DNA of 64,000 nt from Klebsormidium nitens (Eukaryota > Plantae > Klebsormidiophyceae). How positions within the stretch are numbered: the stretch's first letter is position 1; each line of letters begins with the position of its first letter. The notes under the pieces were generated by a model. The model was given only the letters and a program-made list of their open reading frames with translations, did not search any database and was not told the DNA's origin. A program made the translations under genes and the position numbers. The stretch covers positions 33,660 to 97,659 of the forward strand of contig DF237299.1 of assembly GCA_000708835.1 (NCBI GenBank). Reading direction: 5' to 3'. Shown piece after piece: positions 42,571 through 64,000 of this stretch.

Positions 42571-45500
42571 ATGACGTTAAGGAAAACAAAAGTCGGTAGT
42601 GATAGAAAAACTGCTGGTACAGGGCACTCTGCTGGAAAGGGATTGAAAAACGTGAAGCTGAGGAATGCTGCAAAAGCTGACAAGCGAAGTCCACAGGTTA
42701 CGTACAGGGCCATCAAAATGAAGAAGAAGAGAGTTTTAAAACAGATGCGGAGTCTAGTTAGAGAGCATTGCGATACGGATGACAAAACTGGAGCCGCTCT
42801 GCTGTGGAGGTTGCAGTCACCTGCAAGCCAGCAAGACATTCTACAGGCCCTGAAGCAGCTTGGGGAAAAGGAGAAGTTGACTGAAACAGAGATGGTAGAA
42901 CTTATACAAAGGATTCCCCCGTACATTCAAACGATGCATGAGCGAGGGAAGAAGCTTGCAAAGGGGATCTGTTTGACACCTGATTGTGTGCAAATAGTGA
43001 CCGCCCGGAAGGCTGGAAAGCTAGTTGACAGGGCTGAAGTGGAGAGACAGCGGGCGGTGGAGAAAGCTGGAGCTAAAGTGAAGGAAGTAAACAAGCCTCT
43101 CTCCATTGAAAGGTCGCCTCCTCCAAGGTACTTCCTACCGTTTTCCTGCTGTCTTTTGTTGGAATTTTGGGCTTTCTGAATGCAGAAGGAAAGGTAATCC
43201 TAATGACCGAGGCCTCAGCTTGACTGGAGAGCGTATCTATGAGCTCATGATCATCTGGGCTGTGGACCTCAACGGTTTATATTGATTGTTGTGTTGTTCA
43301 AACCCTGTTCTGTTCGTTTTCATTGGAAGATATTGATGTAACTTCCTGAGAACAATGTCGGTTGGGACAATCACTTACGACACAACGCATCTTGTTCTCT
43401 TCGGTAGTGTGGTTCTCCGGTATCTTCCTCTCGTTTCTACAATGGAACATGCCCCCTGTCTCCACCGCAGCAAGTTTCCAACCCCTCCAAACGTAAATCT
43501 ACGTGTTTTGATGTAGGCGGCCTTTGGGGCAGACTCTTAGAGAGCTTCCCGATGTTAGCACTTCATCGTGCGACGACCACAACTATGCTATGGAGATTTG
43601 GTTCCGTTTTCATGATGTTTATGGGCCTGAAACCTTGGACGAGCACCAATTTTCCCTGGAGTGTCAGATCCAGTTGGACGCTGATATGGGTTGTGTGGTG
43701 GAAGCGCAGGTGAGGTCGCACATCAAGCCCTGAATATACGCCCATCAAGGCACGCAATGCTGAGCTGCTCTAGGCCAGAAGTAAGTATTTCTTGTGTAGA
43801 GATTGCAATATCACATGGACATAAGCAGGTTGTTTGAGCGCACCACTGCATGTTGCCAGCTAAAGACAACTGACAGGGAGGGGAACTGCCGATAAGGCGC
43901 TGTTCCAGTTGTGGAGACTTAATATCTCCCTTGAATAATTGCAGTGGGAGGAGGCGGCAACAGTCTGGCCCTTGCAGGCGGCAACGGCAAGATTAATTGG
44001 TACTCCGGATATCGAAGATTTCGTTGCTCGATGTCGCCTCGCTGTTGTCAACAGCAGTTCTCGCAGCACTCTTCTAAAAAGAGTTGCGAGCACCACCAGG
44101 TGGGTTTCAGGATTTCATAGCAGGGAGGGTAGACATTCCTGATAAGTGCTCAGCTGTCATCTAGATAGGCTGTGCTAGGGCGTTCGCAGGATCAGGTGGG
44201 GCCAATCCTGGCACTCTTTTAAACAATTGCAACATAATGCCCGAAAAAAAGGAACTTCAATGGTCGATGGTGGGAATCGATCCTAGGACCTTTCGGAAGG
44301 TTGGTACATTTCGGTACTTTCTAAAAGTACACCCGGACGGACCCAAAAGTACACATGTACGCTCCAAGTACAGCCCGCCGTCATGTCAGCACTGTCGGCT
44401 TTTCGGCATTTTGACGTTTGATCTCGTCATTTACTCAAATCTCGGCCAAATTGAGTTCTGATTTTTGCTACCGGTACCCCATCGGTAGCTCATCGCAGCA
44501 TACCAGTAGAAATTTTCACTTCCGCCTGCCAACCGGTCGGTGGTAAAAGTGGCCGGTACATGCAGATATTGAAAAGGGCGCCCCACGGAAGTCGGACCCG
44601 GCCCAACTTTTTTGAGGTGATTTTCGGGCACTGAGCCCACCTAGGGTACCTCTTGTGCACTGCGTTCCTACTTTTCAAAAATCTGATCGGATGCGGCCCC
44701 GAGAGGATATATGTATTTATTTTATTATATTTATCTGTATTAATTGATACCGTAAATACCCTGCCCAGGTCAGATCTCTGCGGAAATTCCGGAAGTAGGA
44801 ATGTGGTGCACTAGACTTTCCCAAGGCCTATTACCTGTGCCCAAATGTCGGCTTCCGAAAGTTGGAACCAAGGCCGACTTCGGTGGGGCGCCCTTTCGAA
44901 ATCGTTGATGTACCGGGCACTATTTCTAACTACCGGGCACTCGTCACTTTTGGCGAAAGTGAGGGTTGTACATTTTAAAGGTGCGAGTTGCGTACTCAAT
45001 GCAAAAAACGGAAGTCGATTTGAACCAGAAACGATGAAACGGCGGCTATTCTCGTATCGAGTATTTTTCTGCGAATATGCTGACACGATTTTGGCCCTAC
45101 CTGACCCTGCGAACGCCCGCTAAGTAGCATCTTTCTTAACGGGTAGCGCTGGAAGGAGATTATTTGTGGACTTTTGTTCGGATCTGATACTGGCGCCAAA
45201 GCTTTTTGTTCCTCTTGAACCATATGTCTTTCATGTTTCAGCTCTCACTTCTTTGCCTCCCTCCTGTGTCTTGCAGTATGAGCATTGATACACCTCAAGA
45301 GCAAATCACGGGCGATCTCATCAGGTTCATCTCTGAAGTGGAGCGTTACATGGTGACGTTGAGAATACCGGAGGAGTGGCCCACGTTGGGCCTGCCCATT
45401 CAGTTTGTTTCGCTTGTTGATCGGTGGAATCAGGAACCGCTGTCGAAATACATGTTGGTGAGTCTCTAAGCTGCTGTTGTTCATTTCAGTAGATGACATG

Positions 45501-47207
45501 AAGCAGGTGCACTCATGAGTTTGTTATGCAGTGATGAAGAACCTTTTCTGGGTCTCTGCTTGCTTCAGAAAAACTGTTACTTCATCTATGTTAAATGGGA
45601 CAGGAGCTACAACCTTCACGACTGTCAAACGCTGAAGAGGTTAGGACACTTCTCTCCACATGCCAAGCACATTCTTCCAAGGTTCTGGTGTTGCAAGCCA
45701 AGATTTGCACCAACTCTTTGGCCCCAGGCCAACGGGGCGATCGGTTGGAAAGAATCCTTCGTGCTGTGGCAAAGAGCTATACGGAAAGAACCCGGCTGAT
45801 CACTCCTCCAGGTAATCCGCTTCGGCTAAGCACTGATTGTTTGATTGTGATTCATGATTCTTTCAACGAGCTTGTTGACCTGGAAAGCGCCTCGTCTTGA
45901 AGGTCCTAGCAATCTTCATAGGCGATGGGAGTCTTGCCGGCGTACCTAGATTTAGAAGCTCTTCTTTTTTGCTGAGTCGCATCTCATGCAATTGCTATCT
46001 GCAGACTTCCTGTACATATACCCCTCGCCAACTGGAAACAACACCATCACGCTATGCGCAGAAGACCTGAATACGCTTCAACCCGGTGCTTTGTTGAACG
46101 ACAAAGTAGTGAATCTTTGGCTCAGGTGAGAATCCGTTACTGTCCACAGCTGCCAAAGCCTGTACTTGCAGTATCACCAGACTAGTTGCAAGTTGTCCCG
46201 TGCACAGCCATGGAGCAATTCCTCAAGCAGTAGGACCGTTGGCTGAAAGGATCAATGTCGGTGTTGCCGTCATCCGGAAGTGAGACACGGGGAGGAGGAG
46301 AGGGTCAATTGCTGTGGGGGATGTGGAACTCTTCCTAAATGTCACTTAATGGCGCTTCTGTTCTGGTCGGTTTGCTGGCTGCATGTACTGCTGATTGCTG
46401 CTACTGCCAAGATTGTCGAGAGAAGCGACTACTCAGCCTGCCCGGAACTGCTTGGAGTGATTGTTCAAATACTTTGAAACATGATGGTTTTGGATATCAA
46501 GCCAGTGGTTTTATTCGTGGGCAATGATCGTGCAGGCACATACGAAGCGGCTGCGAGAAGACAGCGGCCAACGTTCTCGTCATGGACTCGTACTTCATGA
46601 CGCTCCTGCACGACATGTTCAAGGCGGAAAGCGAAAACATAGGGGACGCCAACGACATTTTCAACAAGCTCCTGCGCTTTGACGGCTTCAAACTGATCTT
46701 CGAGCACACATTTGTCCTTTTTCCATATTGCCAAAGGTGGGTATGTCCAACACTGCACTTGATGGGCCCGATTAGTCCTGCCTCTATCTAAAAGGGCAGC
46801 TCGATTGTTGCAGGTTCGCGTTCCTAAGAGGAAATTGACATTTTGTGAGGCTTTTGACTTGTCCCTGGCCAATGGCAGTTCCTTCGGTTCTGAAAACGGG
46901 CTCCTGGGGTAGATGTCCTCGTGACTGACTGAAGCTTTTAAAATTGGACCAGAGAGGAGGATGTTCCTCTGCTAGCAATCTGATCAATCTCGAACTGTCG
47001 GTGTCATATTCTTTCTGTGCTGTCTGCTAAGACACATCCTATGGTTTCATACGTCTTAACTCTCTCGCGGTTCTGCAGGTCGCACTGGAGTCTGCTCCTC
47101 CTTAAGAACAAAGCCTGCAAGGGGAGCGCTCGTCAAAGTCCGGCAGCCCTTCTTCATTTCGATTCCAGGCCAGGGCTTCATCGGTCCGTTGATACGTTGT
47201 TCCGAAG
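42571..47207 (+). CDS. Multi-exon protein with unknown N-terminal region and partial Ulp1/SENP (peptidase C48) domain; 3' end unresolved
   Basis: Phase-consistent exons 42571-43127, 43517-43709, 43945-44099, 45277-45457, 45604-45811, 46005-46125, 46536-46736 and 47079-47207. Motifs: ITLCAEDLNTLQPGALLNDKVVNLWL, MDSYF, FVLFP, SHWSL (catalytic His) and LHFDS (Asp). No Q..DCG exon found. Confidence 0.75.
44178..45118. mobile_element. 941-bp non-autonomous DNA transposon in an intron; 28-bp TIRs, 4-bp TSD GCTA (Sola2-like signature)
   Basis: GGGCGTTCGCAGGATCAGGTGGGGCCAA at 44178-44205 matches the reverse complement of 45091-45118 at 26/28 positions. GCTA at 44174-44177 and 45119-45122. Internal inverted arms (~44574-44612 and ~44858-44897) surround an AT-rich centre. 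Confidence 0.85.
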
Positions 47208-47541
47208 GTACGATCGCTTGAAGCTCATCACTGGTTCAATAAGAAACTACAAAGGGCTCTGCAGCCCTTGTATCGAAGACGTTGAACGACCTTCTCACCC
47301 TGTCACAAATGAGTCTAAATGCCCAGGTCGGAATCACACCCTCAGCCTCTCATCCAACAAGCTTGCTCGCTTCTGATTGGTTCACGGATTTTGCCCGGTA
47401 TACACCGTGAAAGTGACTTAAGGAGATAGTTCCTAAGCCTTCCGACCAGTGTTAGTGGCTTAAGGAGATGGTTAACACCGCAGCTACAGACAATATTCTT
47501 CTACCGGACACTCTCCAGACCCGAAGATTCCTGAAGGGTCT

Positions 47542-48098
47542 GCAGCACAATGGCGGCGCAGTGAGCAGCGTTTTAGGGCCTTAGGAGCTTGCAGCCACAG
47601 GGCGCCATTACTTAGGAGCGTTAGCGGCACAATGGCGGCACAGTGAGCAGCGCTTAGGGCCTTGGGAGCAGGGCGCCACTATCTAGGAGCTTAGCAGCAC
47701 AATGGTGGCGCAGTGAGCAGGCGCTTAGGGGATTGTGGCACCAAGCCATGGTAGTGAGCAGTCATGAGCTGCGGCGCAGTGGCGGGCGGTCTTGAGGGGG
47801 TCTGGCTCACAATGCCACCGCTGTGAGCAGCACTTGGGGGTTCGCGGCGCAATGCCAGGGCCGTGAAGCCAGCATTCAGAGGTTTTCAGCGCAATGCTGG
47901 GGCAGTGAGCACTTAGGGGTTTGCAGCGCAAGGTCGGAGCTGTGAAGTGCTCTCTTAGGGGTTCGCAGCGCAGGGCAGAGCTGTGAGGTGCTCACTTAGG
48001 GGTTCGCAGCGCAAGGCCAGAGCTGTGAGGTGCTCGCTTAGGGGTTCGCATCGCAAGACAGGAAGCTGTGAGGTGCTCACCCAGGGGTTTGCAGTGAG
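47542..48098. repeat. Imperfect tandem repeat arrays (70-82-bp units x~3, then ~41-43-bp units x~5) sharing a GTGAG...CTTAGGG core
   Basis: GC(A/G)GCACAATGG(C/T)GGC(G/A)CAGTGAGCAG begins at 47542, 47624 and 47694. GCTGTGAGGTGCTC(A/G)CTTAGGGGTTCGCA recurs across 47902-48098. Confidence 0.8.
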
Positions 48099-48716
48099 CT
48101 GGGTGCGTGCAAGAGCAAGGTGAGTACCCCACCCACTGGATGTTCAACTTTACGCCATCTGTTCCTAGACAATGAGGGGCTATGAGCTGCCTTCTTAGGA
48201 ATTTGAAAGCAGGCGGGGTGAAGCAAGTTGAGTGCCAGACAGGCGGGGTGAGCAAGTGGTACAGCTGGAATTCAGATCGCTCTCTGAATCTTGCAACTTG
48301 ATGGTCCTTGCAGATGGGGGTAGAAGCTCAGGTGGCACCACACAGCCTCTCAATTGACAGGTTAGCTACCACCTCTTCTCTGAGAAGGAGTTGTAGGTAC
48401 GATTTATCACTCTCATGTCAGACCTGCCCCTCAGAGCACTCTCCAGTTGTACTTGACGTTCTTTTCAAAATTGCTGCATTTCATCTGGCATTTCATCTGA
48501 GCAGATACACGGATAACGAGCGTTTTTCACAAAGTATCTCAAGTTGAGAGATGTCAGTTTAGGACCCCTAGGGAGACTTTCTAAAATCCTCCGTGTATCC
48601 GCGCCAAGTGCCTCCGCAGTTTATTATGATGTTTACACACCATGCAAAAGGTGTGGTGTGTCTCAGGGAGCTGTGTCTCAGAGTGGCGCTCATTTGGAGC
48701 CTTTCGCTTTCCTCAG

Positions 48717-51700
48717 GTTGGTGCCTCTGGCGTCATACCCAGACTTTGTTGTGGATCAGATGCTGCTTCTTAGCCGCTCTGAGGAAACTCAGAAGCACTG
48801 CCACAGCTGCAACCACAGGCTGTGGGACCTGCAGGGGACGGAGGGCGGCACAATCCTCGTTTGCAAGAAGCGAGCAGCGGTAGACCGGGAGGGGTTTATC
48901 ATATGCCAAGCGCAGAACTGCCCCCAATACGCCGGAGCCGGTGACCAGCGGTCACGCAGGATCTTTTGCCTGAGATGCACGACACTGCGGGAGAGGGGTG
49001 GGGGGGCAATAGCTTTCGATGCCTGCTTCGGTGTGAGGGAGGGGGGCGGCTTCGAACAGCTGCTGCAGGAGTGCCTTCATTGCAGGAGCGGGTCTGGCAA
49101 GCAGTGCAAGCGGGGAGACACAGACGACAGCACCTGTCCTAGGTTGATCCACCAACGGGATTTCGAGAAGCCTCAGAAGCGGACGGCGCCCATCCCTGAT
49201 ACCAAACCCCTAGCCCCTTACGCATACCCCGGCCTCCGTTACATGGCCTCCCACCTGCCATGGCTCCCTTTGCCTGATCAGTGGTTCTCCACCCATGGAC
49301 TCGCTCCAGAGCCCGTGCCCAGAGTCCGGCTGCCGTGGGAGCCCTATCCCCACCACTGGCTGTTCTTTTCCCCAAAACAGCCCCCCAAAGGGACGCCTTT
49401 CCACACACTCCTTCCTACTTCCCCAAAGCACGGGCACCGCACTCACCTGTGGCCATTCCCAGAGTTACCCCCTCAGGAGTCTGTGTTCTACGTCCACCCA
49501 AGCAGCTGCCTTCCACCAGCCTTCTTGGCATGCGAACCAGCCTCTCTCCCACCAGAGGGCCTCTCCTACGAGCCCCAGCCACCGTACTCTTCCGGCGTCT
49601 TCTTCTACGGACGGGACCCCAGTCTGTTTGCTCTCTTCGAAGCAGCAAAGGATGCCCCACAGTCGGAGTCAAGGAAGCATGCAAAGAGATCTCCTGAAGT
49701 CAAGGTGAGCAGCTTTGCTTCAGCTCAAATGCAGACAGTGTCATGTGACCCTTGAGCTCACGTGCTGTCTGACTTCAACTTGACCCTTGAGCTCTCCTGA
49801 TGATGTGCTGTGTGACTTGAACTTGATCCTTTAGCCCTTCCGGAGACGTGCTGTGTGCTTCAACTTGGCCCTTGAGCTCTCCTGGTGATGTGCTGTGTGA
49901 CTGTGAACTGATCCTTGAGCTCTTTTGGTGACGTGCTGTGTGACTTGAACTCTGCTCTTCTGCCAGAACACTGGTTTGACTTGGCCACACTGTTCCTGTC
50001 CAGGTGCAACGCTGCGAGGAGATCCCTGCTGCTGTCTACACCCGCGAGCTGCCGTTGCTGGTTGAGGCCTTCAGGGCCAGGGCTGCGCAGGGCTGCCCCC
50101 TGCACACCGGTCCTCTGCGGGGCAACTACATGCTCATTGCTAACATCGAGCAGAAGTGGGAGGGGGAGGGCGGGGAGAGGGCTCTGCGAGCTCGCATTGT
50201 TGAGCCGGACCTGAAGACTGGGGCTGGGGGAAAGAACCCTGTCCGGACCCTCTGGCCTGTAAAGGTCCGGTTTGGGGTGGCCTCGGGGGGTGGCACAAGC
50301 CTGACGTGCAACTGCAAGCTCAAAGGCCCGGAAGACAAGTGCTACCACGTTGGCGTGCTGGAGGCTCTGACCGACCTGAGCACGCTGGACGTGTGGACAA
50401 CAGGCACGACGCATGAAGGGGTGGAGACAGTCCGGCGGGGGGCACGTGCCGTAAACTGGAGGGCTTTGGAAGGACAGAGCACAGTGGCTCTGACTTACGA
50501 AGCTGCTGCTGTCACCATCTACATTGTCCACAGCGGGTCCTCTGGGACGCTGGTGGCCAGGCGAGAGCTTGGCGACAGCGATGATGAGGCGCAGACGGCC
50601 AAGCCGAGGGGGAGGGGGGGCAAGTTCAGGGGGCGGGCGGTTAAACAGGGGCAGGCGGCTAACCCCGGAGACGAGTGGTTCTGCGAAGCGTGCACATTGG
50701 GGCAGATGGATCTGCACGGGCGGTGCATACACTCGTATCAGCTGGCGGGGCTGACCAAGGAGGAGTGGCAGCCGCAGGGGGAAGGTGTCCGGGTGCCTGA
50801 AACTGCGGAGGAGGTGTGGGGTCTCAACTTTGGCGTCAAGCCTTATCCCAAGCTGGGAACAGCAGCCACTATTGTGTGCACTTCCTGCCCCAGAGGTGCT
50901 GACAGAGAGTCTGCTAAGGTAACCCAGGCAAGGACGTGCCCCCACCTAGCCAGCCTGTCCCCCATTCCCACAGTGACCCCCCGAAGCGCAGAGGACCTTC
51001 GGACGGACCCGATCATCTTCGGGGAGCATTTGAAGGTTGCTCACGTGTGCACCCATGAGTGCCAGCTCAGGCCATGCGGCCAGCTGCCCCCGAGGGATAA
51101 CGAGCTCAACCAAGCAGCTGAGCAGGGGACCAGCCTGGAAGACACGCGCCGCTGGAGCCGGGAGGGGCGTTTCTGCCAAGCCCGCCCCGTCACCCCAGCC
51201 CCTTGTGGGGCGCCGTGGCATCTGAAATGGAACGGGGAAGGCAGGCTGATCAAAGCGAACGCGCTGCACGCAATCGACATCGGCACGTGGTGGTGCGGCC
51301 GCTGCAGGATGGGGTGTACCCTGAAGTACGACGCCGCTGCGGACGGTCTCTACTACCTAACTCCACAGACCCTCGTCACCCAGGAGGTGCTGAAGAGCAT
51401 GGAGGATGACCTGCTGCAAAAGGCAGCCTCCTTCCAACAGATTGTGCGTGGCTGGGAGGGCAAAGCCCTGAGGACGTTCACAGGTAATGGCCAGTGTCGT
51501 GCTTCTGAAAGCAGCTGTTGTCTGACCGCTGTACTGCTTCCTCTGGTGTCCATGCTGATTCCCCACCCTGGCATTGAAGTGATTATTACCATTTGCGCCT
51601 AAAANNNNNNNNNNNNNNNNNNNNNNNNNNNNNNNNNNNNNNNNNNNNNNNNNNNNNNNNNNNNNNNNNNNNNNNNNNNNNNNNNNNNNNNNNNNNNNNN

Positions 51701-54700
51701 NNNNNNNNNNNNNNNNNNNNNNNNNNNNNNNNNNNNNNNNNNNNNNNNNNNNNNNNNNNNNNNNNNNNNNNNNNNNNNNNNNNNNNNNNNNNNNNNNNNN
51801 NNNNNNNNNNNNNNNNNNNNNNNNNNNNNNNNNNNNNNNNNNNNNNNNNNNNNNNNNNNNNNNNNNNNNNNNNNNNNNNNNNNNNNNNNNNNNNNNNNNN
51901 NNNNNNNNNNNNNNNNNNNNNNNNNNNNNAAATCGAGCGTTACACGCAACCTGCGACACTTTCAACGAAGACTGTAATAAAGAATCCAACCAGGAAAACA
52001 GGAATGCTAGAAGGGATTAGATATCAGATCAGCTTTTGCTCGAATGCAGATGGCGAGCAGGACACCCGCATGCTGTGTGAGGACAAGGCGCGTCAGGGCA
52101 TCGAGCGCTACTTGCAGCACTTGGATGACCACCTGGTCGAGCAGTGGCGGAAGGAAGCCAGGCTCGAGCCCACCAGCGTCGTGGAGAGACCCCCTCACAA
52201 GCCAGAGTTCAAGCCAGAGAGCGGGCAACCTGGAGGCAAAGGCTACGTCTTGTTCGTCCCCCCTGAGAATCCTCTTGATCTGAAGGACGCCCTGCTCACA
52301 AAGTTCTTCAGGGCCGATGACCGAGTTGGGGGACATGCTGGGGGCGATTACGAGGGACGGGTTTCTGGCTATAATTTTGAGAAGGAGCAGTGGAAGGTAA
52401 GCTCTTGCCAGTTCTATTGTGCTACGTGAGGATGGTCGTGTTTCATTGCTGCATTGGCATGGTCTGCGCACATGATAGCGGTTCAGCCCCCCAAGGGAAT
52501 CTCTGAATCATCCTTGTTTCTGCACATCTGCCTCCACAGTTCAACACAATACTGGGCGCGTTGTGAGTAGCATGGTCTAGCGGGAGCTGTTGCACACAGT
52601 ATCATGCATACGAGGGTGAGCTGGCACCTTCAATAGAGCCTGCTTTCATGGCAGCTCTCCTTTTGCAGATTGCGTATGACGACGAAGACCGTGAAACCAT
52701 GTGCTTCAAGGAGCTGGCCCCTCTTGTGCACACTCTCCCTGAGGGCTACGTTGACAACAACCCAGATCCCACCGGCAGGGGGCACCCGGTCCCACCCTTC
52801 GCTCAAACAATTGGGGCAAACGTGCTCCTTCAAAGACCGACTTGGAATAGAGAGTACAGGGGACAGGTGATGGAGCGGGTGGGGCCCAGGCCGCTCAGCA
52901 ACGGGGAAAGCGGTTATGTGTACCAGGTATGGCTCTTCATTCCTTGAGCAGCGAAGCGCCTGTCTGCATGGGGCTTTCCTGGTTGCTTGGATGCATTTCA
53001 AAGGGTTAGCAACAGTTCAACGCTTCAATGGAGACTTGGGTACTTCCAGGCTTGAGATCCTGAAATCCCTTCAGCTAGGGGGTACTAAGGTACATCCTTC
53101 CTGAACCCCAGTTCAGAGCCCAGCCCACTCGCACTGATAACCAAGGTGTGTGTCTTTCTGGGCGTCAAAGCCAGCCCTAAAGCACCTGCTGTGAGTCTGG
53201 GCTTCGTCCTTTGGGGCGACTGCAAGATGGAGCCATGGCAGATATGCCTAGGCAGACCAACGGACAATTGTATCGATGTCACAGTCCTGGAACATATGGG
53301 CAGCAAACCATTGAGAGTATCGTCCCCGTCTTTCAATTTGCAGGTCAAGTTCGAGGACGACACGGTAGAAGACTTGGAGTTTGAGGAAGTCAAGGCAGCG
53401 CGCCAGCGATTCCAAGACAGCGAGTTTGGCAACAGCGACGCCCCCACGCTGACCCAGGTGGATCTTGAAGACATCAACCGGCCCTCAGCCCTGGGAACAT
53501 GTGCCCAGTGCGAAGCCGCTGGCGGGCCGCAGACGATTGTGATTGATGCCACGAGAACCCTGGCCCTCAAAACCGCAAAAGATCGATACGGGAAGCCATT
53601 TTCACTCGTCCCTTTCGGTCATCAAACGGTCAGGTCCTTCAGGCAGCCCCACTGAGCCCCTACTCTCTCCAGTGCCTCTGCTCTGATGAAGACCCCGTGT
53701 TACTCCTGCCTACAAAGGGGAGCAAGCAGACAGTCACAGAGAAGATGAAGCTGATTCCACGAGGCGTCAAGCGGAAGAAGGATAAGAAGACCGGGCAACC
53801 GATCGGACCCAAGACCGGACCGCGCACTCAGCTCCTGCGCTGGAGCCAGGCGCTTGTCATGTGGCCGGAAGATAGCAAGAAGGTCACGGCAGGGACTCCA
53901 ATCGAGGGCAACGAGGTCTTCAAGAGCGCAGCAGAGTATGTGGTGAGCAGCAAAGCCCTTCTTTGTGACCGATCTCTTACATGCGTAGGGGCCATAAGCT
54001 CTTGTGATTGCAAGTGCAGATGCACGGCCTGCACATATACACGAAAAGCGAGCTTTTTCCAGAGAGTATCCTCAAGTTGAGAGATGCCACTTTAGCCTCC
54101 CTAGGGAGACTCTCTGTCTCTTTTGATTATCTGCACATGCGTAGGGGCCATAAGCTACAACGTGCTCTTGTCTCTTCCTTTGTGATCCTGCTATTGGACA
54201 CGTGAGCCACGTCCTTTCTCTGTGGTTGTGATCATCTTGCGCTTGTTTGCAGGCTATGCTGCCACAGCTCCCCCGGTGCGTCCGGCGGTTGGTTGAGTAT
54301 GTCGTGGGGGCTGGGCATGGAATCACCGTGCGGAAGATGGGGTGCCCGGAGGGGCCCTGGAGGAACCTCTTCTACCATCTCGGGTCGCCTGAGTCAGATG
54401 ACGTCCTCATCTGCAAGGACGTGCAGAGCACAGTGTTGCGGTTGCTCCTGGGCAAGAGTGCTGGGCCTGTCACACTCACTGCAGATCAGCGGAAGGATCT
54501 GAGGGAGAAGTCCCCAGTCCTGGCTAAGGTCTTGCAGGAGGGGGCGCAGATGTCCGATGGAGGCTACTGGATATCAAAGGAGTTGCTCGACGCTCTCGAG
54601 TCGCTCCTCATCCACCTTCTTCAGATGTCCTACTTTGCGGTGGACCTTGACTGTGGGACTCGGGCTGTCGAGCTGCTAAAGGAGGCACTCGCGGCCTCTG

Positions 54701-55759
54701 CTGACTGGGGGGCACAGCGCGGGGAGCACCTGGAGCGCTACGTGGAGAAGATAGAGAGGCTCATGTACCGGAAGTTCTGGTTCAAGTTCATGGAAGAGAA
54801 GGCATGCAATCTGGGGCCTAACGCTCTAAGCTATGCCCAAAACGCAGCGCGCTTGTGTTCCTACTCGGTTGTTCGGCCCGTCACGCAAAACCCCGCCCTG
54901 GACAAGGTGAACGGAAGAGCGCTAAAGAGTCAGAGGAACAAGAAGTGCACAGGGAACTACGCCCCCAACGTGGAGCCACGGTTGAAGGTAAGTCCAACTG
55001 CGTCACAACCGGCAATGTTCCCCTCTTTTCTGAAGCATAGACGCTCTCTGGATAGTTCTGATTGCATGCAAGGGCAGCTACTTGCTCTTGCACGTAGAGA
55101 AGCTTATGTGTTTGTCATATGCAGAAATCCCTCCAGAAAAAGGTCGAGAACTCGCAGCGGTACATCGACAATCTTGCGATTATGTCCTGCGGGCACGGGG
55201 TTGTACTGGACTACATCATTGGTCTTGAGCCGGAGTCTGTGAAAGATGTCATTGTATATCTGGAGACCCGATTCAAATACCACCCCCCCAAGCTCATCAT
55301 CAACGACAACTCCTGCCAGGTGGAACGCAACGGAAAGCTTGTAAGATCCCCTCTCTCCAGCCTTCTCTCTGCTGCACTGCTGCAACTACCCCTCGTAAGC
55401 AAGCACTGTCTCTGATGCCATTTAGTCATGCATCTTTTGCTTATTCCCCTGCTCATTATCCTCCTTTCCTGCTTTTCCAGCGCAACCCCAACTTCATCGC
55501 GGGGTCATCTTTCTGTCTGGATGGTTTCCACGGATATGGGCACCGGTGCACGAGGCACTACATCCTGGGAGAGCGCTTTCCGGAGGCAAAGGACGAGACA
55601 TCAGTCGTAGAACATATCAATGACTGGCTGGCGGACTGGGAGAAAGTCTTCTACAACATGAGGACGGACACCCTCCAGCTTTTGCTCAACTTCATCATCC
55701 GTGCTCGAAACCACAAGAAGAACGAGGCCTTCAGGTCCCGACTTCTGCGTCTGAATTAA
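48717..55759 (+). mobile_element. KDZ-superfamily (Kyakuja-Dileera-Zisupton) DDE transposase gene, multi-exon, with accessory zinc-finger and Tudor-like domains; start not located
   Basis: Phase-consistent exons 48717-49704, 50004-51483, 52050-52396, 52669-52927, 53344-~53628, ~53673-53942, 54253-54987, 55125-55340 and 55481-55759. KDZ motifs: CAQCEAAGGPQTIVIDAT (D at 53545), MSCGHGVV..EPESVKDV, PKLIINDNSC (D at 55305), LDGFHGYGHRC, VVEHINDWL (E at 55610). SWIM-like motifs CNCKLKGPEDKCYH and CEAC..RCIH. Confidence 0.85.
49748..49955. repeat. Intronic ~42-bp imperfect tandem repeat, about 5 copies
   Basis: CCTTGAGCTC..GA(C/T)GTGCTGTGTGACTTGAACTTGA recurs inside intron 49705-50003. Confidence 0.85.
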
Positions 55760-56091
55760 GGGTAAGAGCACGCTGCACTTACCGTCCACTTGCATTTGGA
55801 TTGTCTTTGCCACCTCTCGTCCAGTCTCATTAGACCCCGTTTGTTTGCATTTCTGTAGGGCACACACCTAATGGGACTCTCTGAAGGTGCGACTCCGTAC
55901 CAGGCAAGGGTCTCCTGTGTATTCCATGTTCTCCAATCTGTTTGTTCAGCTTCGGGCCTTCTGCAACTTGTATACGTTGTTGTCTTGCTCGGCCTCTGCG
56001 GTACTGGCTTTAGGCATCTACAAGCAGCAGCAGCAGCTGAAGGATGTTGCGTCTCTCCCGAAGCAAGTATATTTCCCTTACAGGAGCGGCG

Positions 56092-56870
56092 TCACAGGCT
56101 CTGCATCTCCCTTCTCCATTGGTCGAGCTTCGTCCGTGAGAACGGGAGCTTCTGCTTCTTGCTCTGCTTTGCCAGCGTGGAACGGTCGGCCTCCGGCTGA
56201 AGGCCCAAGTACCTTTTGCGTGCCTCAGCCCAAGCGAACAGTGTCAGGTAGTCAGGAATCAGAGGCGGTTTGGATTTGTCTTGTAGATACTCTAAGACCC
56301 CATTATCAACCCGTCCGAGATTGCCCTCTCTTGCTGAGCGATTCGCGTCCAGACGTTTCTGTAGCTCCTGGAGCCGTGCCAGGTTCTTTTCGCGCTTTCC
56401 CGCCCACACACGCTGCTTTGCCCTCGAGCTCGACTGCCATGTGTGCTTGATGTCGTCGACCAGCCATGGAAGCCCTGCAATTGGGAGGTTGGTGCTGGCC
56501 TCACGCGGATCCGTTGATTTCGGTGCCCTCTGAATGACCACGTCCAATACTGGGACGTTGTGGTTGAATTCGAGGCTTCCAACCCTCACTCTCATCCTAT
56601 AATCAATACTTACAAGCCGCGGGCGACCGTTAGGCTCTTTAGGCAGATATCGCAGTCTGAACTGCAGATTATCGTTGTCACGAATCCTGTACAAGAAGCC
56701 CACGGGCGTGCCACTGATGACCCTCTCAACGTTGGGTGGCAGTATTCGCGCCAGCTCTTTCACCATGATAGTGACCGCCTTTCCGACCAGTGCAGTAGCC
56801 AAGCTGACCACATCATCCAAGTGCTGCCCTGGAGGCACATATATCTTTGTGTCAATGTCTTTTGAGACTC
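56092..56870 (-). CDS. Second (paralogous) nucleotidyltransferase copy, C-terminal part; 5' part lost in assembly gap
   Basis: Reads (R)VSKDIDTKIYVPPG...VLDVVIQ...GKREKNLARLQEL...MQSL*. About 21 amino-acid differences over ~205 aa versus the copy at 56891-57507. Confidence 0.75.
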
Positions 56871-56890
56871 NNNNNNNNNNNNNNNNNNNN

Positions 56891-58504
56891 AGGAATCAGA
56901 GGCGCTTTGGAACTGTCTCGTAGATACTCCAAGACCCCCATATTAACCCGTCCAAGATTGCCCTCTCTTGCTGAACGGCCAGCGTCCAGTCTCCTTTGTA
57001 GCTCCTGAAGTCTATCCAGATTTTTTTCGCGCTTTCCCGCCCACACACGCTGCTTTGCCCTCGAGCTCGACTGCCATGTGTGCTTGATGTCGTCAACGAG
57101 CCATGGTAGCCCCGCAATTGGGAGCTTGGTGCTGGCCTCGCGCGGATCCGTTGATTTCGGTGCCCTCTGAACGACCACGTCCAGCACAGGGATGTTATGG
57201 TTGAATTCGAGGCTGCCAACCCGCACCCTCATTCTGTAATCGATACTTACTAGCCGTGGGCGACCGTTGGGCTCTTTAGGCAGATAGCGCAGTCTGAACT
57301 GCAGATTGTCATTGTCACGAATTCTATACAAGAAGCCCACCGGCGTGCCACAGATGACGCTCTCAATATTGCGCGGCAGTATTCGTGCCCTCTCTTCCAC
57401 CATCATAGTCACTGCCTTGCCGACCAGTGCAGTAGTCAAGCTGACCACATCATCCAAGTGCGGCCCTGGTGGCACATATATCTTCGTGTCGATGTCCTTT
57501 GAGATCCGGATCCCGCTGTCGAAGCGCCTCATTGCATCCCCCCCGGTCACAAATATGCGCCCCAGAGATGCTTGACTGAGCCGCCCGTCAATTGCTTGTA
57601 TGGTCGCGTTGATGCACGGCCGCAGCGCTTCTATCAGCTGTGACTCACACATCTCTACCGCTGCTGCACCGCCTGGGAGATGATCGAGCGCCCTCAGAAG
57701 CAAACGCCCGATAATACCCTCGTTTCTATTTGCGAATTCTGTGCCGTCAAAAACCTGTACGAATGATTTTGCCAGGCCCTCATACCAAGCTGCGGCCTTC
57801 TTGCCACCCAGCCGTCGATCAAGATGCCTTTTGATCACCTGTCTCCTTATCTCATCAATATTGTACTTTTTCTCTGGTCGCTTCGACTTGATGAGTTCGA
57901 GGAACGTCACACACCCCTCGAGGTTAAGGTAGGGTGCATCTCTCGAAACATAGGTGTTTTGGAAACGACTGGGCACAAAAGCATCTCCCAGATTCATGAC
58001 TTGCACATCAATGTATGTTTTCTTCCGCTCTCCCAGTGCTATCCCGGTCAGGCGTGCTGGATATGGTGTCTCTGTGAGGACCATGGGCACAACACAGTCG
58101 CTAGCTTTTACCACTGTGTACACTCGCTTCTTTCGAATATCTTTGTTCATGCGCAATTTGTCAAGTAGCACGTCTTTGAAGTATTTGCAAAGCAGCGTCG
58201 AAGCTTGGATTGCGGCTTGCTCACTATTAACCAAGACCCACATGTCCCAATCGGCAGGCTCAAAGGCACTATATTCCGATTCAGATGAAATGGCCTGGGG
58301 ATCATCGTTGATGGCGCACAGCATGCTTTGACTGCCAACAATAACATGGCACCAGCCCTGAGACCGGATCCATTCGACAAACTGGTCAATATATGGCTGT
58401 AGAAGAACAGTTGTGTTGACACGTTTCTGGCGTTTGATAACGTCCTCTGCATACAACTGTTCATCAGGAACGACTAGGAGGGGTGGCAACGGGCCTTTGG
58501 ACAT
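56891..58504 (-). CDS. Intronless tandem two-domain Pol-beta-superfamily nucleotidyltransferase, resembling giant-virus poly(A)-polymerase-like NTases; 3' end in gap
   Basis: ATG at 58504 and more than 535 open codons. Domain 1: VIVGSQSM (58331-58336), ADWDMWV (58244-58252), YIDVQV, RPEKKYNIDEIRR. Domain 2: FVTGGDAM, SKDIDTK (57482-57496), VLDVVV, GKREKNLDRL. Confidence 0.8.
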
Positions 58505-58533
58505 TCTGAAAGACTCCACTAATATAGTCCGAT

Positions 58534-58785
58534 ATTATCTATGGGCTTGTCCTGGCCTGCACCTGCACAGGGGACTAAAGACCTGGGTTTCACCTGAACA
58601 CCGAGCTACTCCTCAGGACTCATGCCAAGCTATGGTTTATTCTGATCTCGCTCATAAACACCACGATTATCTATGGGCTAAATTTAGCCCTGGCCTGCAC
58701 CTCAACAGGTGGCTAAAGACCTGGACTTCACCTGAACACCGAGCTTCTCTCTGGACCTCATGCCAAGCTATGATACACCTGACCA
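58534..58785. repeat. Imperfect direct repeat, ~132-bp unit x2, immediately upstream of the nucleotidyltransferase ATG
   Basis: ATTATCTATGGGCT..CCTGGCCTGCACCT..CTAAAGACCTGG..TTCACCTGAACACCGAGCT..CTCATGCCAAGCTATG begins at 58534 and 58666. Confidence 0.85.
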
Positions 58786-60153
58786 GTTCTCAGCATTGGG
58801 TTTCCCTAACATCTATAGACCTGATCTCATAGGAAACCCGCAAAGCATCGCATGTCAACCTTGATCAGTTCTGCGACTATCCCTCAACTGCAACTGGCAA
58901 CTAGCAACTAGCAACTAGCAAGCTTGGCAAAGGCACAATAAGTAACGTCACCACGTGCAAGTATCCTTCCGCGAGTTGCCACAATGAGAACACGATCTTA
59001 TGGCATGTTCACCCGCCGAGCAGGGCGCGAGGAGTCCTTCGCTTGCATCATGACGCGCAGAGCAGCAAGGCAATCCATGAGGCTGCACACAAATAAGATG
59101 TTTTCAGGTTTGACCCACCTTTGCAACGAATACAAGTGCGAGGGGGAGGGGCTGCAGCAGCTGAAGCTAGTGGTGAAGATGCATGTGGGTGCATGCAAGC
59201 ATTGATCGAGGCAGCAAGCACTGGGCGTGACTTGCCGTTTGTGCGTTTGAATCCCGAGATTCCTTTCCCAGCGTTCTCCTTCCTGGACCCTTTGGATCCA
59301 GAGCCCTGCCTGACTACACTGACAACCAAGGTGTACGAATGTTGGGCATCAAAGCACTGCTTCGAGTATGGGCTTCGCCTGAGGGCGACTATCAAGGGTG
59401 CAATGGCATTCGCTTACAGCACCACAAGCGCCTGATGCGGGGCTCTCCGTCCTCCTGAAGGCTTTGCCTCGCTAGTGCCTCGGTACTTCAGTGCCGTGCA
59501 TGGGAGCTGGTGAAGCTGAGGCTTTGGTTCCTTTCGTTCAGCATACAAACGCTGGCTACTCGCCGTGCAACTTGACGATATAGGTGCTGCGCTTAGGAGC
59601 TGAAGTTGATGGAACTTCACGAATTTCAGCTTAGAACTAGCGGTTCTCAGCTACAGTAACCTGAAAACATCTGTCTTGGAGAGGCTTCCAATCCGATACA
59701 AGATAGCTTGATGGAACATGCGGTACCAAAGTGCTCACCACTGATGCAGTTTCGCCATGTGATAGACGGCTTCCTCCTCATGAGGATCCGCAGCCTGTGG
59801 AGGAGCCTGGCTTGTGGGTGATGTCTCCTCAAAGCTACTGCACCAAAGGCGGCAGAAACATGATCAAGGGTGTGACATGGTGGTCCTGATGCTCTCAAGA
59901 AACAGACCAAGCAACAAGTGACAGTGCATGTACCCCATTGATCATGACACTTTGATTCACTCGACAAGCAGATTCACCTATTGCTGATCCAGCAAGCAAT
60001 CTCACCCCCCTTCCCAATTGGGTGCGTGCATTCCTGTGATGACGGTGGGTGTGTTGGGCTGCCACAGCATCTGTGACAGTGCAGGGGAGCTTGCTGGCGA
60101 AACCTCCGCGTCGCGCTGCCTGTTTTCACCAAGAGCAGGAAACTGCAAAGGAG

Positions 60154-60678
60154 TCAATGTTCAATGAGTGCAGGCAGAGATTTTATTACAGCAGCTGAGA
60201 CAAGTTCAGGATTGCCATGATGATACCGCAAGAAATCAATCACTGCAGGAAGAGGTCCTCTTTCAGCGGAGCTCTGCAGGTGGAGCAAATGAGTTCCTCG
60301 CGCTTCTTCTTGATAGGCCATTGAGGAGTGTATACTTACAATCTTGAAGAACGAGTCCATATCTTCACCCACCTGCAAGGATAAGGAAAAAGACAGTAGT
60401 GAACTATTGGTATCTTAAAGCAGGGTCAGAGGAAGCGGGAATTGCAAGCGCACAGTGATAGCCATCTGTGAAAGCTTACCATAATGCGCACCAAAATGAC
60501 CACTCACTCCTGAGAAGTTGCTGGGGGGATCCATTGGGCAGCTTGAAGTGCGCTCGGCGCTCGTTGTCAGATCCACCCGGATCCTTTTCCGCGGCTCGCC
60601 GGCTAGACGGGAGATTCGGTGAATAATGACGCGGAGCGGGGTCCCTTTGAAGCTACTTTCGGACTGGCTTCCACTCAT
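60154..60678 (-). CDS. Possible small multi-exon hypothetical gene
   Basis: ATG-led exon MSGSQSESS...SNFSG followed by a ga|gtgagt donor, phase-compatible with exon VGEDMDSFFKI (cag|gtg ... att|gtaagt). The remainder is not resolved. Confidence 0.3.
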
Positions 60679-60733
60679 GTGGAAGCCAGGGCTTTATAAG
60701 GCTGAGGTGAGAANNNNNNNNNNNNNNNNNNNN

Positions 60734-61017
60734 AGGGGTGCCGGGGGTGCCGGGGGTGCCAGGGGTGCTGGGGGTGCCTGGGGGTGCCGGGGGTGCCTGG
60801 GGCCTCCCATCTTGCGGCCCTCCCACCCCTTTGATGCACGCGCGAGCGCGCGAGGGGGCCCACATAGGCGCTCGCGACGTCCGCTTGTGCGATGAGGAGA
60901 TCGACGGTCAACTCACAAGTAATCAGTTGAGATCGACGGTCTACTCACAGGTAACCATTTGAGATCGACGGCTCCTTCAGGTTCATGGAGGTGACGGATG
61001 GTTCATGGAGGTGACGG
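60734..61017. repeat. Cluster of short tandem repeats: 9-bp GGGGTGCC(G/T) x~7, 32-bp unit x3, 20-bp unit x2
   Basis: 9-mer array at 60734-60800 abuts a gap. GAGATCGACGG at 60897, 60929 and 60961. GGTTCATGGAGGTGACGG at 60980 and 61000. Confidence 0.85.
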
Positions 61018-61342
61018 GTGTTTACATGTGTTGACGGCTTGCCCTTCCGGTGATCGACGGTGTGTTTGAGTGTGACGGACGGCTCACTTTCAGGCTCCTT
61101 CGCGCTAAGCATGAGCAGAAGCCTATGTTGCTGTTTCTACGGCAATATGTCGTGCTCCTTGTCTCACACGCCACAGGGCGCCATTTTAACAGACCCCATG
61201 GCCAAGTTCCTTGTCGTAGAAGCAGTCCAGGAGCTCACTCCATGTTCCGGTTCCCACTCCAATGTCTTCACCTTCCCACAACAGCGGCACTGCAGCAACC
61301 GTTCACCAGACACTTGCTTTTCTGGGCAGTCTCTCCTGACTG

Positions 61343-64000
61343 ATGGCCACTCTGCCCAAAGCGTTCATTGGACCTGGTTTGCAACGGTGTCTCGTTTACG
61401 GTGGGGAGCTATACTTTGCAGCCCGGCCAGAGGACACAGCTGGTTGTTCCATCAAGCCTCGGAAGCGGAAGCTGGTGAGTGCTTTGCAGCGCACAACGCC
61501 TGCAGAGGATGCCGCTCCCAGCGATCAGAGCGCGGCTCACCAGCTACAGCACGCTGCTGAGACTAGCAATCGGAGGCTGACCCATGCCCTTGTGAAGCAA
61601 CAGGAGCTGGAGTCTGCTGTTATCTGGGACAAGAGCCTGCACCTTGCATCGCAGGCTTGCAGCTCGAGGCCAGATCTCTTTTCTCGTGCTGTCATGCGCT
61701 GCTTTACAGAGGGTGGGGCCCGCCGCAGCGAGGCACGCCTGCTGGACGAGTTGGCAAATGTGTTCATAGAGAGCCTGGTGGTTTACGGGAGCCCGTTAGG
61801 CAACCTCCCTCCACTGGAAACCTGGCCCGCCCCGTGCCTTTTGACGTGGAGGGTTGACGGCTCAAACTACACTGCCCCTCGGTCGGGCCAAGGCTTAGCA
61901 GAGTATCTGGGTTATGTGGCCGACGACGAGTGGCATGTGGTCGAGCAGCAGAGTGCTTGGATGCGCTGCCTGAAGCCGGTAAGTGCTGGTACCAGCAAGT
62001 GCTCAACTCNNNNNNNNNNNNNNNNNNNNNNNNNNNNNNNNNNNNNNNNNNNNNNNNNNNNNNNNNNNNNNNNNNNNNNNNNNNNNNNNNNNNNNNNNNN
62101 NNNNNNNNNNNNNNNNNNNNNNNNNNNNNNNNNNNNNNNNNNNNNNNNNNNNNNNNNNNNNNNNNNNNNNNNNNNNNNNNNNNNNNNNNNNNNNNNNNNN
62201 NNNNNNNNNNNNNNNNNNNNNNNNNNNNNNNNNNNNNNNNNNNNNNNNNNNNNNNNNNNNNNNNNNNNNNNNNNNNNNNNNNNNNNNNNNNNNNNNNNNN
62301 NNNNNNNNNNNNNNNNNNNNNNNNNNNNNNNNNNNNNNNNNNNNNNNNNNNNNNNNNNNNNNNNNNNNNNNNNNNNNNNNNNNNNNNNNNNNNNNNNNNN
62401 NNNNNNNNNNNNNNNNNNNNNNNNNNNNNNNNNNNNNNNNNNNNNNNNNNNNNNNNNNNNNNNNNNNNNNNNNNNNNNNNNNNNNNNNNNNNNNNNNNNN
62501 NNNNNNNNNNNNNNNNNNNNNNNNNNNNNNNNNNNNNNNNNNNNNNNNNNNNNNNNNNNNNNNNNNNNNNNNNNNNNNNNNNNNNNNNNNNNNNNNNNNN
62601 NNNNNNNNNNNNNNNNNNNNNNNNNNNNNNNNNNNNNNNNNNNNNNNNNNNNNNNNNNNNNNNNNNNNNNNNNNNNNNNNNNNNNNNNNNNNNNNNNNNN
62701 NNNNNNNNNNNNNNNNNNNNNNNNNNNNNNNNNNNNNNNNNNNNNNTGGGAGACAGGCAGAAGGACAACCTACCTGCAATGCATGGAGACGAACTGACAA
62801 TTGCCACGTTCCACTCGCAGGCCCTGCCGCGCTTCGTTTGGCTGCATGTCAAGGAGTTGTTGGTGAGGCAAAAGAAGGCGTTGGACCTGTTGGTTAGGGG
62901 CCAATCTGCGGAGCAGTTTGCGTCTGTCTCGCTGAACAATGCAGAGAGAGAAGCAGCCCAGCGGCGCAACAGGCTGGGCAACTACCAAGATAACACCCTG
63001 CTCGAATTGGAACAGAGGGTCCGCCAGGAGTTGGCCGCCTACCAGGACCTGCAGCGGGGCAATGCTGGACTCCTCGACTGGTACCGGACCACAAGCTTTG
63101 TCTTGACCGGTCACACGGCATCCATCAGACCGCTCCTCCAATCCGAGTACCCTTCCCAGGCAACTCTGGACAGCTCGGTCTTTGGGGCTGATTGCCTCGA
63201 GGAGCTGACCTCGAGCACAGCGCCTTTCTTTGTCAAGTTTGATGGGTGGGTTGGCCCAGCCTGGGGGATATTCTGGGACTGGGTACTGACGGGTGGTCTC
63301 AAGCAGTGGCTGCCTGAAGCAGACTCCCTGGGTCGCTCCCTCGAGCTGCTCAGGGACCGGGAGCTGGGGGCGGTCCTGCAGCAGTGGGAGGATACGCGGG
63401 ACGGGGACCGCTTCCAGCTGCTCAAGAGCTGGCTGTCTGGGCCCGGTGCCATCTTCCCTGCTCGAGTGGCTGGCATGGTGGGCGAAGCGACCTTGCCCCC
63501 AGTCTCCGAGACGGCTCCTATCCACAGGCAGCTCAGGGTGAGAGCCTCCAAGCCTCCAATCAAGTTTGCAGATCCATCTTCCTGCTGCACTCTCTCTGCA
63601 TTCCCGGCCTGCCTGTCTTTGAGTCAGTGTAGCAAGAAGTCTGCGAACATGCATTGCACAGCATATTTTGTCTGTGTTTGCGCCATGCTCTCTGTATCTT
63701 GATCACATCACGTGTCGCTTTTTCGAGCCATCTGTCTACGAGCCACTTTTGAACTGGCCACTTGCATCCAAACGTGGATGCTCGCGCTTCGATGAGGAAT
63801 GGCAGTGTCACTTTGAAAGTCCGTGCGTCCTCCATGGTGAACCTGTATTACCCAGGCTTGTCATTGCCCCTAAGCCAACATCTCCAATCCAGAAAACAAA
63901 AACCTGCTGGTGCACGACATGCAGGTCGTGAACCCCTGGCGGGCCGACTGCGTGTTTCAGCCCCGTGACGAGGCGCTGTTCGGGCTGCCCGGCAAGTCTG
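61343..64000 (+). CDS. Large multi-exon hypothetical protein, interrupted by a 737-N gap and running off the window
   Basis: Long open exons at ~61.3-61.98 kb (ending ccg|gtaagt) and 62747-~63537 (ending agg|gtgaga), plus a new exon after tttcag at ~63961 (PRDEALFGLPGKS). No recognisable domain. Confidence 0.6.

Follow-up and report, generated by a model that had tools for sequence, protein, structure and literature searches.

A gene of the alga Klebsormidium nitens, located in the 64,000-nucleotide stretch of genomic DNA analysed here (hereinafter the window), encodes a protein with two tandem nucleotidyltransferase (NTase) domains. The protein represents a family that is unnamed in Pfam and NCBIfam, is strongly conserved, and differs from the viral poly(A) polymerase (PAP) already described. 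The best explanation of the observations, to which we assign a probability of roughly 0.45, is that this is a multi-copy, virus-derived K. nitens gene, the C-terminal domain of which would extend RNA 3' ends with nucleotides, and that mobile DNA probably carries it along as a passenger. Being distinct from PAP, the family suggests that giant viruses have a second nucleotide-transfer activity, as yet unstudied. Neither viral genes in this alga nor viral enzymes with duplicated NTase domains are new.

Two copies of the gene at an assembly gap

The locus consists of the following features (positions are those of the window):

45986..55759, plus strand: multi-exon KDZ-type transposase gene model KFL_003500145, single copy over 52000-56263
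56092..56870, minus strand: copy 2, the 3' half of a paralog from the equivalent of residue 334 onward, with the full C-terminus and stop
56871..56890: 20-N assembly gap separating copy 1 from copy 2
56891..58504, minus strand: copy 1 of the tandem NTase gene, 538 codons long and missing its 3' end because of the gap
56975..57640, minus strand: C-terminal NTase domain of copy 1 (about residues 289-510), predicted catalytic site
57683..58408, minus strand: N-terminal NTase-fold domain of copy 1 (about residues 33-274), with GS57-58, D85, D87 and D166
58505..60713: upstream region co-amplified with the 5' half of the gene, with a 138-bp-spaced duplication at 58551-58772
59149..59644: insertion of about 500 bp in the upstream region, lacking in other copies

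Copy 1, which a homology search identifies as the K. nitens locus KFL_003500150, is a single uninterrupted ORF, as the initial annotation had it: the frame contains no stop from 58504 to 56891, where it runs into the 20-N gap, and the gap truncates it to about 45-50 residues less than its relatives. The description of the gene as intronless holds for the coding sequence but not necessarily upstream, where an acceptor-like TTTCAG lies one base 5' of the ATG and an intron is possible. The piece beyond the gap shows 88% nucleotide identity to copy 1 over 205 codons and hence is a separate copy; therefore, copy 2 rather than copy 1 adjoins the transposase gene. The two genes are convergent, the transposase stop (55757-55759) and that of copy 2 (56092-56094) being 332 nt apart, so that the tail-to-tail arrangement described previously is genuine but involves copy 2, not the ORF for which it had been reported. 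We discarded the annotated protein KFL_003500150 (P0003) as an artefact: its start is late, and it fuses the two copies by splicing over the gap.

A second assembly gap is located at 60714-60733, and the contig between the two gaps is multi-copy and may be a collapsed repeat. The GC3 of the NTase gene is 0.57, compared to 0.74-0.76 in the neighbouring genes, in line with a viral origin. CpG depletion was set aside as evidence because the values in the 48-64 kb region (0.47-0.87) overlap those of host genes (0.61-1.13).

The family in giant viruses

A profile search of 1.84 billion sequences yielded 297 family representatives (at 50% identity) with E<=0.001, the best 150 of which were listed. 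In a word-based search, 17 of 7997 candidates proved to be relatives, 10 of them at 54-100% and 7 at 24-32% identity; the alga-type sequences include three named K. nitens loci. Searches of Pfam, NCBIfam and PDB sequences with the family gave nothing meaningful, and there is no Pfam model. A literature search, which took in passages of PMC4402537, PMC11646218 and 10.1101/2023.12.02.569716, found no description of the family; it might be listed unnamed in giant-virus orthogroup tables.

On viral contigs, 20 of the 32 candidate stretches were confirmed as family members (23-32% identical to copy 1). Ten of these loci belong to named giant-virus metagenome-assembled genomes, and eight others reside on contigs longer than 150 kb; their neighbours include genes for D5 primase-helicase, topoisomerase II, RNR, PCNA and Rpb5. 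One metagenome scan detected eight virus-type loci and no alga-type relatives, and the family is present in all four searchable virus bins. By contrast, none of the 102 candidate stretches from prokaryotic genomes was confirmed. Given that distant members are found on giant-virus contigs and that none were detected in prokaryotic genomes, the viral origin of the gene, proposed at the outset, is well supported, and we consider it highly probable. The best matches are not cellular PAP or TUTase orthologues. The best viral structure-model match is an uncharacterized protein of Mimivirus AB-566-O17 (E 3e-19, TM 0.68), and the top ESM clusters are hypothetical proteins of Nucleocytoviricota, a weak indication in view of the low recognition score.

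In a FastTree phylogeny built from 330 columns of the C-domain region in 51 selected sequences, the alga-type members fall into a single clade (support 0.99), which is the sister group of P0090 (0.92) and is placed among viral sequences. The tree was midpoint-rooted, with no outgroup and no clade test, and therefore we only infer a transfer from virus to alga. Those of the sequences P0004-P0012 that are not K. nitens records could belong to viruses of the alga.

Insertions of giant-virus DNA in K. nitens have been reported (PMC5294986 and 10.1101/2025.04.15.648976). The locus does not look like a giant endogenous viral element: no viral gene cluster was detected in the 49 of 100 long frames scanned in the 38-64 kb region, none of which belongs to a viral family, and a host neurochondrin gene and the intron-rich transposase gene are nearby. 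One flanking ORF has no viral relative. Contamination with viral DNA is unlikely given that one 3047-nt contig of run X1, which may be the assembly's own sample, joins the intron-bearing 3' end of the transposase gene to copy 2.

Several peculiarities of viral members are worth recording. Giant-virus bin G004 encodes two family members, on contigs C20 and C3. Some proteins, among them P0014 (L003:8501-11152) and P0052, begin with an additional domain of some 230 residues that has no Pfam match and whose motifs may resemble ADP-ribosyltransferase-like folds. In unrelated viral loci, a second small NTase-like ORF, with a GG..RD motif and no Pfam match, is located near the gene (L001:17587-18612 and L002:3642-4754).

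Amplification of the gene and the KDZ transposase

The last 376 residues of the KFL_003500145 model resemble KDZ transposases (ESM score 0.97; clusters with PF18758 on 46-50% of their members). The Pfam KDZ model gave no score on this protein, and the Pfam scan returned only a sub-threshold CxC4 match and a Tudor-like one. The N-terminus of the model (exons 45986-47205) is ULP1-like according to its UniRef name and was not scored by Pfam; from its motifs, we take it to be a ULP1/SUMO-protease-like domain.

The contigs of sequencing runs cover positions 52000-60700 of the window, with the summed contig depth serving as a rough guide to copy number. In run X1, the transposase region (52000-56263) is represented by two contigs that show no differences, at a depth of about 14, whereas near-identical contigs over 57878-60700, one of which runs on beyond 60700, have depths of 32-50; a paralog at 86% identity contributes a further depth of 18. 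Thus, the 5' half of the gene and the upstream DNA appear to be present at about three times the level of the single-copy transposase (depth of about 50 against about 14), which implies that transposase and gene are not co-amplified, except if copies of the gene are arrayed in tandem locally. Contig joints reveal deletion variants, one lacking residues 209-435 and another lacking residues from about 218 to 334, and a contig of depth 27 is mosaic, matching copy 2 at 8 of the 14 differences listed. The 59149-59644 insertion is found elsewhere with other flanks and has an internal-deletion variant of its own; it is likely a small non-autonomous element.

The initial annotation regarded the gene as transposon cargo, and there is a precedent for this: fungal KDZ transposons carry cargo genes, the TET/JBP elements (PMC12730594), so that in both cases the gene for a nucleic-acid-modifying enzyme adjoins a KDZ transposase. 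The fungal elements, however, have defined ends and 7-8 bp target duplications, whereas here no ends were found and the copy numbers of the two genes differ. A scan for terminal inverted repeats and target-site duplications found no candidates with repeats of at least 9 bp and three 5-bp matches at chance level, in a region where gaps hide sequence and for a group in which some elements have no terminal inverted repeats. Self-BLAST and comparison of the putative ends detected neither similarity nor element ends, and a weak search with one transposase exon as the query returned only the gene itself and no close transposase paralog beside the other NTase gene copies. Of the cargo proposal, therefore, the KDZ neighbour stands; that this particular element captured the gene is conjecture.

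We nevertheless favour, with reasonable though far from full confidence, the spread of the copies with mobile DNA; the several copies, the deletion derivatives, the repeat-rich setting and the lack of any other viral gene among the frames scanned all fit the passenger status. A DNA transposon would have spread the copies, or else they multiplied in tandem within such an element, and this KDZ family as the carrier is a tentative proposition that we would not bet on. Should the KDZ link prove true, an enzyme of viral derivation would join the TET/JBP genes of fungi as KDZ cargo.

The main competing view, which we consider unlikely but the strongest of the alternatives, holds that the gene was left behind by giant-virus insertions, scattered and silenced, that its adjacency to the KDZ gene reflects chance clustering of foreign DNA where repeats are abundant, and that the selection discussed below predates integration. 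The known giant-virus insertions in this alga, the uncoupled copy numbers of transposase and gene, the deletion variants and the failure to find element ends are all consistent with such a remnant. It is less easily reconciled with the lack of other viral genes among the frames scanned around the locus and with the approximately three near-identical copies that include 2 kb of upstream DNA and imply recent amplification.

The long plus-strand frames at 61343-64000, which are divergent from the NTase gene and have neither a Pfam match nor a viral relative, may be the gene that really accompanies the NTase gene in the amplified unit.

Conserved residues and the predicted active site

Both Pol-beta motif sets reported for copy 1 are in place: IVGS (55-58), DWD (85-87) and D166 in the N-domain, and VTGGD (319-323), DID (337-339) and D442 in the C-domain, along with the helix motifs R209-x-E-K212..D217-x-x-R220 and K491-x-E-K494-N495-x-x-R498. 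We aligned 147 members of 480-1100 aa from the 166 sequences collected, leaving out P0002 and P0003. In this alignment, G321, G322, R327, D337, D339 and D442 are invariant (147 of 147), and S/T335, K341, R486, K491, K494 and R498 are kept in 142-146 rows, the S/T two residues ahead of the first Asp (position 335) in 146. The pattern of the Pol-beta NTase superfamily, hG[G/S]..Dh[D/E] with a third carboxylate, is satisfied in every row. Position 495 is Asp in 131 rows and Asn in the alga-type clade.

The N-domain behaves differently. Its first Asp position is occupied by Asn in 96 rows and by Asp in 9, and the complete acidic triad is present in 7 of the 8 alga-type rows with residues there but in none of the 128 others, although the N-domain alignment is less certain. 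Accordingly, two complete motif sets characterise the copy 1 protein and the majority of its close relatives, whereas the claim does not extend to the family. Because the C-domain triad is invariant whereas the N-domain triad is missing from the non-algal rows, the C-domain is predicted to be the catalytic site of the family.

Between copies 1 and 2, dN/dS is 0.14 (bootstrap CI 0.08-0.24). By this measure, the copies are under purifying selection and, judging from dS of 0.42 and dN of 0.058, the C-domain was under selection after the copies split. The pI is 9.3-9.7 in all five members for which it was calculated, and many of the invariant residues are basic. Taken at the sequence level, the conservation makes it very likely that the protein is an active NTase.

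We propose that D337, D339 and D442 bind two Mg ions in the C-domain, that the triphosphate is bound by K341 together with the R486-K491-K494-R498 helix, and that a basic cleft formed by R326, R327, R404 and R406 holds the RNA 3'-OH. The C-domain would then use an NTP with two metals and extend the RNA 3'-OH without a template. The viral N-domain, in which the first Asp is usually Asn, would be a non-catalytic RNA- or NTP-binding partner, and that of the algal clade a possible second active site. Given that the algal copies alone keep both acidic triads, the one-site versus two-site question is testable with proteins that should be easy to express.

Predicted structure and possible substrates

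The full-length model (pLDDT 81.5) contains two NTase folds, and that of the C-domain reaches a pLDDT of 93.7; NTases fill the top ranks in structure comparisons of the models. With the whole chain, the only PDB matches detected by Foldseek at E<0.001 are the Megavirus and Mimivirus PAPs (E 2e-5, TM 0.23), and VIA-align gives Z 8.8 and rmsd 11.2 for the Megavirus enzyme. Both halves align to MenT1, the N-domain (residues 33-274) with Z 11.0, rmsd 3.8 and 179 aligned residues, and the C-domain with Z 9.8, rmsd 3.5 and 152 aligned residues, in support of two NTase folds in one chain. Other matches of the C-domain among 48,161 chains are ANT(2'')-Ia (Z 9.2), LnuA (8.9), TglT/MenT3 (8.3), VP55 (7.0) and CdnE (6.7); all these Z-scores are modest. 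Comparison of the N- and C-domain sequence profiles revealed no significant similarity (E 0.07), and hence the domain duplication rests on structure and motifs.

Viral PAP, MenT1 and MenT3 are RNA 3'-tailing enzymes (PMC4402537, PMC7450476, PMC11375011). Because the closest matches of both the whole chain (viral PAP) and the domains (MenT1) thus act on RNA 3' ends, the models tip the balance slightly towards an RNA 3' end as the acceptor; we give tRNA-like and mRNA-like ends similar odds. The MenT1/MenT3/AbiEii group of tRNA-tailing NTases (DUF1814) provides the best structural match for each domain and shares with the family the S/T-x-D-h-D signature at the active site and a basic C-terminal helix. 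Specifically, S/T335 parallels, by motif rather than by superposition, MenT1 T39 and MenT3 S78, which lie two residues ahead of the first Asp (D41 and D80; PMC11375011 and PMC7450476). In the region of the MenT motif III Lys and motif IV Asp, R486, K491, K494 and R498 are kept and D495 is Asn in the algal clade, the equivalence by position being uncertain. Unlike these single-domain bacterial toxins, which have antitoxins, the family consists of two-domain viral and algal proteins with no partner identified, and its last motif ends in Arg, theirs in Asp. Profile matches are not significant: AbiEii/DUF1814 profiles hit 1 of 67 members at E 0.008 (PADLOC) and none of the 67 with Pfam.

Transfer of an NMP to a protein or a small molecule, in the manner of ANT(2'')/LnuA/LicD and, for example, onto a host factor during infection, would be compatible with the same viral origin. 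ANT(2'')-Ia and LnuA, small-molecule enzymes that share the minimal NTase fold and the helix, in effect tie with MenT1 on the C-domain, and the additional N-terminal domain of some viral members (P0014, P0052) could suit such a role. However, these are small, single-domain drug-modifying enzymes with 10-13% identity and without the basic tandem architecture; the many invariant Arg and Lys residues and the basic pI suit a nucleic-acid substrate, and RNA polymerases of the type of viral PAP give the best whole-chain matches. We therefore regard NMPylation as rather improbable compared with the extension of RNA 3' ends.

A tRNA gene is present in 6 of the 26 loci scanned. In four of these 26, all from one clade (45-93% identity), a tRNA-Asn(GTT) gene without CCA is located 9-22 nt behind the stop of the NTase gene, tail-to-tail:

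L002:11666-11742, tRNA-Asn(GTT)
L021:5017-5093, tRNA-Asn(GTT)
L022:11874-11950, tRNA-Asn(GTT)
L023:2014-2090, tRNA-Asn(GTT)

None of the five loci of the sister clade has this tRNA. The adjacency represents one event and is a weak hint of a link to tRNA. If the tailing of tRNA, as in MenT toxins, were true, it would be a eukaryotic-virus route to translation control. A more elaborate scenario, in which giant viruses possess a MenT-like tRNA/RNA-tailing enzyme with a covalently joined active and regulatory domain that was captured by a Klebsormidium KDZ lineage, had its second site restored and acts on host small RNAs or tRNAs in favour of that lineage, is a long shot.

Relation to viral poly(A) polymerases and oligonucleotide synthases

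The initial annotation likened the protein to the PAPs of large DNA viruses, and the resemblance extends to whole-chain structure and the two-domain form but not to sequence profiles, which place the family apart. Like the Megavirus Mg561 (PDB 4p37), Mimivirus R341 (4wse) and vaccinia VP55 enzymes (PF19244), this is a giant-virus gene encoding two domains of NTase topology per chain, one catalytic and one degenerate, and these enzymes are the top whole-chain structure matches. In viral PAPs, the first NTase domain is catalytic, the second is degenerate, and internal duplication is a hallmark (PMC4402537). Viral PAPs are further characterised by processive tailing specific for ATP and by homodimer formation. 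In the family, by contrast, the catalytic domain is the second one, and the domain arrangement differs (rmsd 11 A). The PF19244 and poxvirus PAP profiles matched none of 67 members at E<=0.05, whereas the canonical gene in virus bin G002 scored E 1e-29, such that this bin encodes both a family member and a canonical PAP. A scan with the G002 PAP as the query found only itself. Considering the lack of a profile match, the reversed domain order and the one of four bins that encodes both, we conclude that the family is separate from the known viral PAP.

One could still imagine a highly divergent viral PAP that has replaced the canonical enzyme in most carriers, with catalysis moved to the second domain; this would be a sub-case of RNA tailing. 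The shared internal duplication and the exclusive whole-chain PDB matches to PAPs at E<0.001 are in line with such a replacement, as are XRN and Nudix genes near the gene in one viral clade and the detection of a canonical PAP in only one of the four bins searched. The absences from the other three carry little weight, as these bins are incomplete and a search was possible for only 4 of the 20 loci, and the coexistence in G002, the 0 of 67 profile matches and the poor whole-chain superposition (rmsd 11 A, TM 0.23) make the replacement an improbable option.

Synthesis of cyclic or 2'-5' oligonucleotides in the manner of CD-NTase, cGAS or OAS fares worst among the activities suggested initially and is very improbable: OAS2, itself a tandem NTase, ranks fifth in the whole-chain search (E 0.01) and CdnE reaches Z 6.7, but CD-NTase profiles match none of 67 members in PADLOC or in Pfam, and the CD-NTase-type structural matches (Z 5.9-6.8, partial coverage of 112-149 residues) fall below the MenT/ANT group.

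Repeats and base changes around the locus

A MITE-like element of about 940 bp at 44178-45118 is bounded by inverted repeats of 28 bp and contains additional ones inside. Short tandem arrays (units of 41-43 bp, 42-43 bp, 9 bp and others) occur at 47535-48094, 49730-49985 and 60734-61070, in introns and to the right of the second gap; the last of these could be an element end. In run X5, 395 of the 459 changed places over 52000-60700 are C>T or G>A, compared to 83 of 275 in X1, as expected from a bisulfite-converted library; only contigs at least 82% alike were seen. If this is such a library, the X5 contigs, 90-99% alike, would indicate that cytosines are densely methylated across both the transposase and the NTase gene, with hypermutation in another strain as the alternative.
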